Assembly (NCBI GenBank): GCA_020051695.1
Contig: JAGVQM010000019.1
Coordinates: forward strand, 79,937-143,936
Source: Candidatus Zixiibacteriota bacterium
GTDB lineage: Bacteria > Zixibacteria > MSB-5A5 > WJJR01 > JAJRUJ01
Length of the DNA: 64,000 nucleotides
Direction: 5' to 3'
Shown here: positions 37,056 to 40,242 of the stretch, piece by piece
Layout of the letters: the number at the start of each line of letters is the position of its first letter
Numbering within the stretch: position 1 is the stretch's first letter
Program-made: the position numbers and the translations under genes
The notes under the pieces: model-generated
What the model saw: only the letters and a program-made list of their open reading frames with translations
Database searches by the model: none
Told to the model about the DNA's origin: nothing

Positions 37056-37078
37056 TAATGTGGCGTTTCGCCACATTA
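37056..37078 (-). terminator. perfect 10-bp inverted repeat hairpin at the hgcB stop codon (candidate operon terminator)
   Basis: TAATGTGGCG-TTT-CGCCACATTA includes the hgcB stop codon. It is followed on the minus strand by UUAUUCGCC. Confidence 0.4.
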
Positions 37079-37372
37079 ACAACAGGTTTGACTGTCTCCG
37101 CAGCCGCAATCCGGCTCGGTGCCGCGCAGACGGGCCAAAATAATGGCATATGCGCAGCCGACACCGGCGCGGACACTCAGCGCCCCCTGAGGGCAATTGC
37201 CGGCGCACGCGCCGCATTCCATACAGGCGTCCCGATCGGTGATCGCCGCTTTTTTGGCCTCGAAAACAAAAACCGCATGCGGGCACACCTGCAGGCAAAT
37301 TCCGCAGCCGTTGCATTTGCCGCGGTCCAGTTGCAACGTGCTGACGTTGGGCAAATATTTCAATTGCGGCAT
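37076..37372 (-). CDS. hgcB: HgcB, 2x[4Fe-4S] ferredoxin with C-terminal vicinal cysteines (mercury methylation)
   Basis: Start at MPQLKYL (ATG at 37372). Two CxxCxxCxxxCP motifs (CNGCGICLQVCP, CMECGACAGNCP) and a C-terminal ...CGCGDSQTCC. It lies 11 nt downstream of hgcA. Confidence 0.75.
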   Translation of the reverse strand: MPQLKYLPNVSTLQLDRGKCNGCGICLQVCPHAVFVFEAKKAAITDRDACMECGACAGNCPQGALSVRAGVGCAYAIILARLRGTEPDCGCGDSQTCC

Positions 37373-37383
37373 AAGTCCAACTC

Positions 37384-38538
37384 CTAGATAAACAAACCGG
37401 CTGTCCAAAGCCCGAGGCCGGCCACTGCAACACCGGCCTGCACCGGCACAGCCACCCGCATTTCCCGCTGCACACCGGACAACGACGTGTATGTCGAACA
37501 CCCGGTGAAATTCATGGCAATGAAACTGGTGGCTGCCGGAATCATTAAAAACCAGGACAAACCGGCGAGAGTATTCCGGAAAACCCCGGGCTCACCTGCC
37601 GCGGCCACACCCAGGATAAGCGCACACACCAACCCGAACCATGCCCCTTTGACCGCAAATGCCCGGCCCGGAAGCCACGGCAGTAATGCCGCCGGAATAA
37701 TCGATCCCGCCAAATACACCGCCAACACAAGCAGCGCATTGACTAACCCAAATGATACAACCCGTTCCCATGCATACACGCCCGGACCAAAACCGGAGAA
37801 CACCAAAAAACATGCTGCAGCCGGCAGGGGATATTTCAAATTATGGACTAATTCATTGGGCACCAATGCAATACGATCAAAAAAATTAAATGTAACCCGT
37901 CTCATTTCCGGCGTGGCCTTGAAACCGGCGGCCAGGAAGGCGGCAAGATCGGCGGCACGCACCGGGCCGTATACCACGCGAAACCCCGTTCGCTCCTTAA
38001 CGGTATGAGCGGCGATGCCGGGGGCCCCAAGTTGCGGGACAATCAAGCGGCGGTGGGAAACGATTTCATTCAACCGGCAGCCGATGACCCGCTTGACCAG
38101 TTCGTCCGTCCCGAACGTCCCCTTGCCCGCGGCGCACCAGACGTTGATTCCCCGGGTATCCAACACCAGCAACCAGGCATCGCTCCCGCCCAGGCGTGAA
38201 CGCAAATGGTCGAAACTCATTTTATAATTTGCCGAAACAAAAACCTGGGATTTCGCAGTCGGCCGGCCGACAGCATAAAGTCCCGGCTGCACCCGGTAAT
38301 TCATGCGGCCGATGCCCCAGCGGGCCTTATATGCCCCCCGCCGATCAGCCGATTCAAGTGCGGTACTCACGACCGGGATTTCGCCGGCGGCAGTGGTGAT
38401 GTGGCCTACGACCCAGGGACCGAAACCGATATTACCGCTTGAGACTCCGATGCCGGGGACAGAAACCGGGGTCTCCACAACGGGAGAACAACAACACGAC
38501 GGCGCCGTAGCTGATTTTTTGTCCTGTCCCTCTGCCAC
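37384..38538 (-). CDS. hgcA: HgcA, corrinoid protein of the mercury methylation system
   Basis: Diagnostic cap-helix motif GINVWCAAGKGTF within a CFeSP-like corrinoid-binding N-domain. The C-terminal roughly 180 aa form four or five TM helices. Followed by the hgcB-type ferredoxin. Confidence 0.8.
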   Translation of the reverse strand: MAEGQDKKSATAPSCCCSPVVETPVSVPGIGVSSGNIGFGPWVVGHITTAAGEIPVVSTALESADRRGAYKARWGIGRMNYRVQPGLYAVGRPTAKSQVFVSANYKMSFDHLRSRLGGSDAWLLVLDTRGINVWCAAGKGTFGTDELVKRVIGCRLNEIVSHRRLIVPQLGAPGIAAHTVKERTGFRVVYGPVRAADLAAFLAAGFKATPEMRRVTFNFFDRIALVPNELVHNLKYPLPAAACFLVFSGFGPGVYAWERVVSFGLVNALLVLAVYLAGSIIPAALLPWLPGRAFAVKGAWFGLVCALILGVAAAGEPGVFRNTLAGLSWFLMIPAATSFIAMNFTGCSTYTSLSGVQREMRVAVPVQAGVAVAGLGLWTAGLFI

Positions 38539-38550
38539 TTTACCTGTCTC

Positions 38551-39246
38551 CTACAATGTCCCCAACAACCAAAATCCCGCCCCGAGCAACACCAGCCCGG
38601 CAACAATCCGGATTGGCTTGATGGCCTTTTGGAATGCCGAGGTCAACCGCCCCAACCCCATACCCAACATCAGGGCCGCCAACGGCAAACTGTAACCGAG
38701 AGCAAACATTCCCAGAATCAGTGTTCCCCAGCCCATCTGACCACGGGCCGCCGCCACGCCGAGGACGACGGGCAATAAAGGCCCGCAACAAATCAGCGTG
38801 CATGAGATACTGGCGGCGCCAACGACCAGCCCGAAAAGAGCGGCTCCTCCGAACCCGCTCGGACGTCGCCGATCAGTCAAGGTGAGTGAGGGCAGGCGAA
38901 AGGGCAGGAAATCCAGGGTTACCAGACCAAAGAAGACCGCGGCAATTCCGGCAAGTAACTGCCCGTAGCGGCCGAAATTCGCCCCGACAAATTGGCCGAA
39001 AAAACTGACGAGCAGGCCCAAGGATGTCAGGGCGATGGTTGTGCCTGCCAGGAAAAATAACGACGTGAACCAGGCATCCCGCCTGTCACGGACCCCGCCC
39101 TGTCCTCCGGAAAAACCGGCAACCGCCGCGATCAAACCCAGGTTGCAGGCCGAATTGACTGCCGTCATCAGCCCCAGAAGAAATGCTGCAGGCAAAGCTG
39201 CGATACCGAATTCCGGGGAAGCAAATATTCGCTCAATCCATTCCAC
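38551..39246 (-). CDS. MerT/DsbD-superfamily-like membrane protein with internally duplicated thiol motifs (SACNLGL...; SCTLICCGPLLP)
   Basis: 231 aa with six or seven TM helices. TM1 AVNSACNLGLIAAVAGFSGG resembles the MerT TM1 (ASACCLGPLVLIALGFSG) with the second Cys replaced by Asn. A later helix, ISCTLICCGPLLPVVLG, repeats the CC-GP-L motif. Located in the same operon as hgcAB. Confidence 0.5.
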   Translation of the reverse strand: MEWIERIFASPEFGIAALPAAFLLGLMTAVNSACNLGLIAAVAGFSGGQGGVRDRRDAWFTSLFFLAGTTIALTSLGLLVSFFGQFVGANFGRYGQLLAGIAAVFFGLVTLDFLPFRLPSLTLTDRRRPSGFGGAALFGLVVGAASISCTLICCGPLLPVVLGVAAARGQMGWGTLILGMFALGYSLPLAALMLGMGLGRLTSAFQKAIKPIRIVAGLVLLGAGFWLLGTL

Positions 39247-39255
39247 GTCATTCCT

Positions 39256-39843
39256 TTACTTTTTTCCGGGATTGTCGGCCGGACAACAGTTCGCCGCCGT
39301 TGAGCCAAATTTCTGAAATGTCTGCCACAGGGTTTCCGCAGTGATTTGCGGACCCCTCAATACGACATGACCAGTGCCGCCGAGAGCGATGACCGCCGGG
39401 GACGTGGAAAGGGCGTATTTGCGGATGACGGCCGAGAATAACGGGTCATCCGGCGTGAGATTGACTACCTTCAATTTTCTGGTGGTGGTCATAATCCGGG
39501 CGGCGACATCGCCGACCGCCGCGGTCGTCGTCGGTGATCCGGATGCGTCGGCGAGTACCACCAGCCCGAAATCGGCGCCGATAAATTGTTGATCCAAAAA
39601 GGCAATGCCGGTGACAACGGCACCGCCACAGCCACCGGCCCCGGGATCACAACCGGCAACATCAATACCGGAATCGCGCCAGAACAAGGAATATGTCGAA
39701 ACACCAAGCGCTAATAACAATACGAGCGTGAACACACCGGTCTTGAACGCTCTGCTTGGACCACTTGCGGGAGGTTTGCAGCAGGATGCTCCGCCGGAAC
39801 AGTTGCAGTTGGAGTCCATCATCGGGAATCCATCTTTTTTCAT
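39256..39843 (-). CDS. membrane-anchored Cys-rich protein with ArsD-like (thioredoxin-fold metallochaperone) domain
   Basis: N-terminal tail CNCSGGASCC, one TM, CDPGAGGCGG, then a domain resembling ArsD (LVVLADA... KVVNLTPDDPLF... SPAVIALGGTGHVVLRGPQITAETLWQTF), and a C-terminal NCCPADNPGKK. The ArsD resemblance is from memory, not a database search. Confidence 0.4.
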   Translation of the reverse strand: MKKDGFPMMDSNCNCSGGASCCKPPASGPSRAFKTGVFTLVLLLALGVSTYSLFWRDSGIDVAGCDPGAGGCGGAVVTGIAFLDQQFIGADFGLVVLADASGSPTTTAAVGDVAARIMTTTRKLKVVNLTPDDPLFSAVIRKYALSTSPAVIALGGTGHVVLRGPQITAETLWQTFQKFGSTAANCCPADNPGKK

Positions 39844-40229
39844 TTAAGCCCTCTCAGATGGGGAGCTTTGCCGCGCTCGGTCCTGTCTGTGGCTGATATG
39901 ACCGACGGTGTTAAGGAGTGGAAAAACTGTTCCAGTTCCCGGACCGCCTCCGGTGCAATCCAGCATCTAACCGACTGTCCCTGTCGCTCCATCCTGATCA
40001 ACCCGGATGAATGCAATTTCTTGATATGATGTGAAACAGTCGATGGCGCTAAGTTGAAATCCCGCGCGATTTCCCCGACGCAAGCGCTGGTCCGGGGATC
40101 GATGAAACAGGTCTTTTCGGCCGCGCAACAGGAGGCCAGCCGCGAAAAGATTTGCAACCGGCTGACATTGGACAACGCTTTGAAAATCCCGGCGAACTGC
40201 CCGATGCGTTCAATTCGATTATTCAACAT
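39840..40229 (-). CDS. ArsR/SmtB-family metalloregulator (hgcAB-associated regulator)
   Basis: HTH STVSHHIKKLHSSGLI, plus CC and Cys residues in helix alpha3 (LASCCAAEKTC). First gene of the hgc operon; overlaps the downstream gene by 4 nt. Confidence 0.8.
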   Translation of the reverse strand: MLNNRIERIGQFAGIFKALSNVSRLQIFSRLASCCAAEKTCFIDPRTSACVGEIARDFNLAPSTVSHHIKKLHSSGLIRMERQGQSVRCWIAPEAVRELEQFFHSLTPSVISATDRTERGKAPHLRGLK

Positions 40230-40242
40230 ATTTCGAAATATG
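40227..40242. promoter_or_regulatory. 16-bp perfect palindrome CATATTTCGAAATATG overlapping the arsR start codon (candidate ArsR operator)
   Basis: Exact self-complementarity. A TATATA motif lies immediately 5' on the minus strand. There is no room for an SD sequence, which suggests a leaderless transcript or an operator overlapping the promoter. Confidence 0.45.

Follow-up and report, generated by a model that had tools for sequence, protein, structure and literature searches.

Why should the regulator and the methylation genes of a mercury-methylation operon be separated by two genes for thiol-rich membrane proteins? The question is raised by 64,000 nucleotides of contig JAGVQM010000019.1 from a Candidatus Zixiibacteriota bacterium (hereafter the window, the whole 64-kb stretch analysed, to which all coordinates refer). 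Its open reading frame (ORF) list and translations contain a cassette of five minus-strand genes at 37056-40243: arsR, ORF195, ORF231, hgcA and hgcB. A preliminary description of this DNA had rightly singled out the two interposed genes as encoding thiol-rich membrane proteins. We find that ORF195 and ORF231 form an obligate pair, linked to hgcAB in many phyla and settled elsewhere in arsenic operons or beside metal pumps. The function we favour for it is a thiol relay that would move Hg(II) or As(III) by ligand exchange.

An obligate pair linked to hgcAB

A genome scan of one genome per species recovered 80 loci; taxon labels are given as in the database records. In 77 of them, hidden Markov models (HMMs) place an ORF195-family gene at most about 20 nt 5' of the CcdA-like gene, the counterpart of ORF231. 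The other three pairings were resolved by eye, one of them being partly masked by Ns. The two genes form an obligate pair. As the loci were surveyed on longest ORFs, some starts are over-extended, and three apparent overlaps with hgcA are artefacts.

The pair touches or lies near hgcAB in 32 of the 80 loci: hgcA is immediately downstream in 27, hgcAB immediately upstream in four, and hgcA 1 kb downstream in one; in eight of the others, the sequence on the downstream side is too short for a verdict. The hgcAB-linked loci span at least nine phylum-level groups (Zixibacteria, Ignavibacteria, Bacteroidota, Calditrichota (Calditrichaeota), Eisenbacteria, Sedimentisphaerales, Deltaproteobacteria, Myxococcales and Victivallales/Lentisphaerae/Verrucomicrobiota). 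The nearest genome matches come from Zixibacteria metagenome-assembled genomes (MAGs), at 53-60% identity. ORF231 homologues of this degree of identity belong to the same arsR-ORF195-ORF231-hgcA-hgcB cassette, with quite different flanks. The link between the interposed genes and hgcAB, first drawn from this one locus, is hence conserved across phyla and surroundings. Loci with hgcA downstream make up one superclade of the CcdA-like tree, and pairwise divergences of HgcA and of the CcdA-like protein correlate (r = 0.82; Mantel 0/2000), which fits long co-inheritance.

One Zixibacteria MAG carries two whole arsR-pair-hgcAB cassettes, L014 (CAWDXE010000001.1) and L075 (CAWDXE010000007.1). In the latter the CcdA-like gene is split into two ORFs, by a frameshift or an assembly indel.

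Anatomy of the cassette

ORF231 (38551-39246, minus strand) encodes a protein of 231 aa with six transmembrane (TM) segments, a member of the CcdA/DsbD superfamily. Its sole Pfam match is DsbD_TM (PF02683; 9e-11, 41.9 bits against a cut-off of 27.1, positions 4-216 of 219). Loops 1, 3 and 5, as read from the sequence, are rich in Arg and Lys, suggesting a topology of the CcdA type with both termini outside. The protein has C34 in TM1 (SACNLG) and a TM4 cluster, SCTLICCGPLLP. Among 81 sequences of the CcdA-like family, the TM1 cysteine is 99% conserved and the TM4 cysteine 98%; an additional cysteine directly adjoins the former in 76% of members, and two TM4 positions directly beside the latter hold one in 33% and 66%. 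Typical motifs are S-C-C-T-L-P in TM1 and C-C-(G/N)-P in TM4. These proteins are a subfamily of CcdA/DsbD with doubled membrane cysteines. Searched against PDB sequences, the family profile matched no solved CcdA or DsbD at E ≤ 1.

The 231-aa protein had been called MerT-like, a name that has to be given up: it is a PF02683 member, has no match to PF02411 at E ≤ 0.1 and holds six hydrophobic segments against the three TM helices of MerT. The likeness to MerT TM1 stays at the level of a motif. The TM1 and TM4 half-repeats both align to the Cys-pair region of that helix with a non-significant pairwise E of about 0.05 (against a manually entered MerT sequence), and the resemblance may reflect convergence on a CC-G-P-L metal-binding helix.

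A comparison from within the superfamily is ArsG (Chen, Zhang, Rosen 2019), of about 225 aa, which exports a thiol-reactive trivalent arsenical and is referred to as an efflux transporter in a passage of PMC9144182. Its NCBIfam model (NF040495) is weakly matched by 10 of 18 family members (best E 1.4e-11), a precedent for transport in this superfamily; these scores remain far under the curated cut-off, and ORF231 itself has no match at E ≤ 0.1. The DsbD-like part of TsoB is weakly matched as well, in 13 of the 18 members, none of them near the cut-off.

ORF195 (39256-39843, minus strand) encodes a single-pass, Cys-rich membrane protein of 195 aa without any Pfam or NCBIfam match. From the family alignment and an AlphaFold2 model, it consists of a C13/C15/C21/C22 cluster, a TM helix at about residues 31-56, a linker with C65...C72, a thioredoxin-fold domain at about 80-185 and a final C186-C187. 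The Cys clusters that the preliminary description had reported in both interposed proteins are all present.

A word-index search found three homologues of ORF195, all from syntenic relatives, so these close homologues bring no independent evidence of linkage. A 40-sequence profile extended the set to 14 proteins, and an exhaustive profile search of 1.84 billion representatives to 70 at E ≤ 1e-3. The family plan comprises an N-terminal cluster of the CC-x4-CC type, a basic stretch, one TM helix, a Cys linker, a domain with an invariant proline (P149) and often a C-terminal CCP, with an average of four cysteines on each side of the TM helix. It is a protein family without a Pfam or NCBIfam model, and undescribed in the searchable literature.

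Modelling with a three-sequence alignment was too poor (mean predicted local distance difference test score, pLDDT, 48.8), and the run with 59 sequences was used instead. It gives pLDDT above 90 at residues 80-185, with the elements in the order beta-alpha-beta-alpha-beta-beta-alpha; topology and cis-Pro loop in the model are those of a thioredoxin fold. A fold search with the domain returned thioredoxins and the b' domains of protein disulfide isomerases. There is no cysteine at the thioredoxin active-site position and no CxxC.

Earlier described as ArsD-like, the domain proves to be a different thing: it has no PF06953 match, on which a true ArsD from locus L045 scores 5e-38, and ArsD is missing from its top 50-60 fold neighbours. 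A functional analogy may be drawn, since ArsD too combines a thioredoxin-type fold lacking the redox CxxC with vicinal Cys pairs for As(III) hand-off; ORF195 differs in being membrane-anchored and in carrying its cysteines outside the fold core.

The N-terminal cluster is predicted to be cytoplasmic and the remainder of the protein to lie outside. This orientation is suggested by the charge bias (over 128 family members, the 15 residues ahead of the TM helix have a net charge of +2.1, against about 0 behind it) and by P0156, a 267-aa database protein in which an ArsR-type helix-turn-helix (HTH) is fused to the N-terminus of an ORF195-family protein with CC motif, TM helix and thioredoxin-like domain. 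P0156 may be either a genuine regulator tethered to the membrane or the product of a frameshift error where the two genes overlap at ATGA.

In Bacteroidota, Calditrichota, Eisenbacteria and others, the partner shrinks to 75-140 aa and has no thioredoxin domain: what is left is an N-terminal Cys cluster, PKK, a TM helix and a Cys-rich tail with CCPK at its end. Because these variants keep only the anchor and its Cys-rich tails, the conserved core of the family appears to be a membrane anchor with Cys clusters on both faces.

The two methylation genes were identified correctly in the preliminary description. HgcA (hgcA, 37384-38538, minus strand; 384 aa), the corrinoid protein, scores 444 bits on NF040863, far above the cut-off of 275, over profile positions 1-324 of 325. 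In translation, its cap helix NVWCAAGK (GINVWCAAGKGTFGT) matches N(V/I)WCA(A/G)GK with the Cys ligand, and a C-terminal TM domain follows, with the profile match running to residue 383 and hydrophobic segments at about 235-384. The N-terminal tail SCCCSP corresponds to the Cys-rich (CC/CU) extension of HgcA noted by Haft and Gwadz. HgcB (hgcB, 37076-37372, minus strand) is a ferredoxin with two [4Fe-4S] clusters and 120.6 bits on NF040864 (cut-off 99); it has two CxxCxxCxxxCP motifs (CNGCGICLQVCP, CMECGACAGNCP) and a C-terminal Cys pair. Its listed ORF is over-extended: with the true start at ATG 37372, which follows an AGGAG, the protein has 98 aa as in homologues.

At the head of the cassette, arsR (39840-40229, minus strand) encodes a regulator of the ArsR/SmtB family, as had been recognised (129 aa; NF033788, 66.1 bits, cut-off 55; PF01022, 40.5 bits, cut-off 22, 2.4e-10). 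Unlike canonical CVC-site regulators, it lacks the As(III) site ELCVCDL in helix 3 and has SCCAAEKTC...AC in its place, a Cys-rich insertion (C34, C35, C41, C50) preceding the winged HTH. This insertion is common to the pair's regulators in L018, L029, L072, L081 and L085.

That an ArsR upstream of hgcAB is already established, as the preliminary description held, is borne out by the literature, in which arsenic genes near hgcAB are established as well and hgcAB responds to arsenic through ArsR. Known arsR-hgcAB operons (Goni-Urriza 2020; Gionfriddo 2023, on Pseudodesulfovibrio mercurii ND132) resemble the present one in their co-oriented ArsR/SmtB gene directly upstream and their arsenic-type regulation. 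In ND132, however, nothing separates arsR from hgcA and no ars genes lie beside hgcAB, whereas two membrane genes intervene here.

The five genes are tightly packed, as first described: from arsR to hgcB, a 4-nt ATGA overlap (arsR/ORF195) is followed by spacers of 9, 12 and 11 nt. The palindromic operator proposed at the arsR start is also there, within an operator-like inverted repeat (40214-40243, minus strand) that is recognised from its sequence and its conservation in relatives. A perfect 18-nt palindrome, ACATATTTCGAAATATGT (40243-40226), covers the arsR ATG; the conserved half-sites are TTCGA (40237-40233), TTGAA (40226-40222) and, downstream, a third one, TCGAA (40218-40214), which is part of the conserved element. 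TTCGA-N6-TCGAA with the ATG in its spacer is kept in L001, L004-L007, L029 and L085, distant loci included, which points to autoregulation of the operon by ArsR.

An AT-rich, promoter-like stretch lies directly 5' of the operator (about 40244-40290). The same relatives show a promoter-like pair TTGAC(A/T)-17-TAnnnT ending some 10 nt 5' of the arsR ATG, with the operator spanning that codon; together these suggest that the arsR transcript is leaderless or nearly so. A consensus promoter scan had placed its predicted site inside arsR, which is implausible, and promoter and operator were read from conservation instead.

At the other end, a 10-bp hairpin (37056-37078, minus strand) begins with the hgcB stop codon, again in agreement with the earlier account. 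Its arms, UAAUGUGGCG-AAA-CGCCACAUUA (37078-37056), fold within a 101-nt context at -30 kcal/mol (z = -2.3), and no U-tract directly follows. A different GC-rich hairpin occupies the equivalent position 3' of hgcB in L001 and L004. The hairpin is probably the 3' end of the transcript or a stabiliser.

By Pfam and flank check, the cassette holds no ars structural gene: its ArsR has no cargo other than the pair and hgcAB. The flanking genes of the window are housekeeping ones (SecDF, phosphoglucomutase, response regulators), with no further mercury or arsenic genes among them. A squalene/phytoene-synthase-like gene 3' of hgcB (35898-36955) has a promoter-like TTGGGA-17-TATCAT and a T-rich leader, both kept in L001 and L004; only in the closest relatives is the gene syntenic with the cassette. 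Scans of the window for tRNAs, Rfam families and tandem repeats gave nothing relevant. Its composition outliers are 24001-26000 (AT skew -0.26) and 48001-50000 (GC 0.50, GC skew +0.19).

Arsenic and metal-pump contexts

The pair is equally at home without mercury methylation. In 15 of the 80 loci, two of them also with hgcAB, it stands beside a same-strand P1B heavy-metal ATPase (TIGR01525, 597 bits) that lacks an N-terminal HMA domain and has CPC in TM4. These pumps (L009:3243-5219 and homologues, 15 loci) also show YN in TM5, and QEAGC...SS where the metal ligands of TM6 normally lie.

Loci with neither hgcA nor the ATPase are arsenic operons: arsR - ArsC/ArsM fusion - pair - Acr3 in L058, arsR - pair - Acr3 in L085, ArsR - ArsP - CMD - pair - ArsD - ArsA in L045 (Methanothrix), and ArsR - pair - ArsC - ArsM - Acr3 in L033. 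Most loci have a gene of the ArsR family close by. The Cys-rich ArsR subtype of the window also controls the pair-Acr3 locus L085; CVC-type regulators accompany the ATPase-type loci.

The preliminary description had proposed a dedicated mercury module, which does not agree with a pair that, in over half of the loci, lies in arsenic operons or next to P1B ATPases. Because it recurs in both settings, the pair is not specific to mercury but a portable accessory of ArsR regulons for metals and metalloids with an affinity for thiols.

In a Pirellulales MAG (L009, 2555-12693), a large ArsR-controlled island contains, in this order, the P1B ATPase, the pair, a second ArsR, ArsP, an ArsH-like flavin mononucleotide reductase, an MtrA-like corrinoid protein, CMD, Acr3, Thioredoxin_3, DGC and a thioredoxin-MerB fusion. 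With hgcAB in mind, it is intriguing to find MerB and a corrinoid methyl-transfer protein in the company of the pair.

The module had also been taken to be undescribed in hgc operons, and the searchable literature bears this out. A full-text search of the literature found no discussion of the pair with hgcAB, and nothing for hgcA with CcdA or with "cytochrome c biogenesis"; hgcA and DsbD co-occur in the full text of a selenoproteome review. The supplementary annotation of Zhang et al. 2023 includes two contigs on which hgcAB adjoins a gene of CcdA or DsbD type, followed in one by Acr3, and the main text, which analyses 35 hgcAB contigs, leaves such genes unmentioned.

CcdA-type genes in arsenic operons, on the other hand, are already known: Castillo and Saier 2010 (PMC2963123) listed CcdA homologues as uncharacterised ars-operon determinants in eight instances. 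Here the pair stands beside ArsC, ArsM, Acr3, ArsP and ArsDA; their homologues may or may not belong to the present subfamily. Their account has no Cys-rich partner family and no link to hgcAB or P1B ATPases. As far as the literature can be searched, the partner family, the obligate pairing and both links are not described.

Possible roles of the pair

By analogy with MerT/MerP, we propose that the pair is a ligand-exchange relay that moves Hg(II) or As(III), and give this a probability of roughly 45%. Within an ArsR-autoregulated operon in which hgcAB would be cotranscribed with the conserved two-gene membrane module, ArsR would bind TTCGA-N6-TCGAA over its own start codon and let go once its Cys site is occupied. 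Thiol-loving metals or metalloids, Hg(II) and As(III) species for instance, would be bound by the pair and handed across or along the membrane through Cys ligand exchange, on a path made up of the outer Cys clusters, the doubled cysteines of the membrane core and the inner cluster. The next station would be the CC motifs of HgcA/HgcB, or a pump without a metal-binding domain of its own. In the window operon, Hg(II) might be delivered to the CC motifs of HgcA/HgcB, or the product removed; which substrate is carried, which way it moves and how the pair couples to HgcAB are in each case what we infer.

In MerT/MerP, the model for such a relay, Hg(II) is passed inward by ligand exchange between an outer thiol protein, vicinal cysteines in a TM helix and thiols on the inner side, and MerT and the pair's CcdA-like protein have the local motif CC(L)GPL(V/L) in common. 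With three TM helices against six, no MerT Pfam match and an E of 0.05, we speak of analogy, not of membership.

A canonical reductant relay is the most serious competitor, possible if somewhat unlikely. The CcdA-like protein would carry reducing equivalents from cytoplasmic thioredoxin outward, keeping the partner's outer cysteines or envelope thiols reduced under Hg(II) or As(III); thiols would be protected and no metal moved. Castillo and Saier suggested a redox role of this kind for the CcdA homologues of ars operons (PMC2963123).

The pair does share much with CcdA-ResA/CcmG and ScsB-ScsC: a DsbD_TM match above cut-off, six TM segments, the canonical TM1 and TM4 cysteines conserved at 98-99%, and an adjoining thioredoxin-fold protein, anchored in the membrane like ResA, CcmG or FetE and with an invariant proline at the cis-Pro position. 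Yet the thioredoxin-fold domain has neither CxxC nor any active-site cysteine, many lineages dispense with the domain and keep the Cys-rich tails alone, and an outward electron relay has no use for the conserved CC-x4-CC cluster on the cytoplasmic side. Vicinal extra cysteines in TM1 and TM4 would also be unusual for CcdA, whose canonical motifs are of the PC type. The hosts, moreover, are anaerobes. The pair further departs from CcdA/DsbD systems in its ArsR control, in the absence of cytochrome maturation genes alongside and in a family profile that does not find the solved members.

The second alternative, which we consider distinctly unlikely, is that only the regulation is shared. The pair would be arsenic-island cargo, a permease for As(III) or organoarsenicals with its chaperone, that sits in one ArsR operon with hgcAB and has no contact with mercury or HgcAB. 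Most loci do have the pair without hgcAB in clear ars contexts, hgcAB is known beside ars genes and arsenic-responsive through ArsR, and the family members are weakly ArsG-like. Against this, 27 of the 80 loci have hgcA directly against the pair, always in the same order, over many phyla and within one superclade of the CcdA-like tree; the HgcA and CcdA-like divergences correlate; and the cassette of the window, with no ars structural gene, offers its ArsR no other cargo.

A housekeeping pair for cytochrome c maturation (CcdA with a ResA/CcmG-like partner) placed beside hgcAB by chance is highly improbable: source annotations do name homologues "cytochrome c biogenesis protein CcdA", but gene context and the missing CxxC tell against it, with no ccsBA/resBC or ccm genes adjoining at the loci examined, ArsR nearby in most of them, no PDB CcdA/DsbD sequence matched by the family profile at E ≤ 1, and a repeated association with hgcAB, ars genes and ATPases that is unlike a housekeeping gene.

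Several points weigh against the ligand-exchange relay itself. ORF231 holds a single cysteine in TM1 (SACN), and the two invariant cysteines of the family lie exactly at the redox-pair positions of CcdA/DsbD, which a reductant relay explains equally well. As to transport, the ArsG model reaches 32.8 bits in one relative, far below its cut-off of 200, and association with efflux systems elsewhere does not tell import from export, the sequence giving no direction. We infer cotranscription of the five genes from their spacing of at most 12 nt, the single promoter and the hairpin. The correlated divergences of HgcA and the CcdA-like protein may reflect mere shared species history.

Finally, the pair is infrequent among hgcA loci. 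A degenerate cap-helix pattern drew 120 metagenome loci in scan order, 119 of which encode HgcA; as exact matches were required, the resulting figure is rough. The pair lies directly upstream in 2 of the 71 hgcA loci having at least 800 nt of upstream sequence (L111, L150), or about 3%, and downstream of hgcA in none of the 39 with enough sequence on that side. On one truncated contig, L202, the 3' end of a CcdA-like gene is seen upstream of hgcA. Model methylators lack the pair, as far as the literature shows; with ND132 having no ars genes beside hgcAB, this low frequency means that HgcAB works without it.

A broader proposal, bolder and in our view unlikely as it stands, extends the ligand-exchange relay to all contexts of the pair. 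HgcAB would be one interchangeable payload of an ancient ArsR-controlled chassis, and the pair an undescribed thiolate conduit feeding Hg(II) or As(III) to ArsM/ArsC/Acr3, to a P1B ATPase without a metal-binding domain, or to HgcAB.

Three questions occupy mercury biogeochemistry: the route of Hg(II) to HgcAB in the cytoplasm, the exit of methylmercury from the cell and the function for which HgcAB evolved. A co-oriented thiol module travelling with hgcAB in many phyla provides concrete gene candidates for uptake, hand-off or export. Beside hgcAB, the pair occupies the operon slot that it has elsewhere beside arsenic enzymes or metal pumps, which ties the connection between hgcAB and arsenic to a shared component. 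If the conduit proposal is true, the pair would be the first route of uptake or hand-off in mercury methylation to be defined genetically, and would give direct genomic support to metal(loid) detoxification as the native role of HgcAB.

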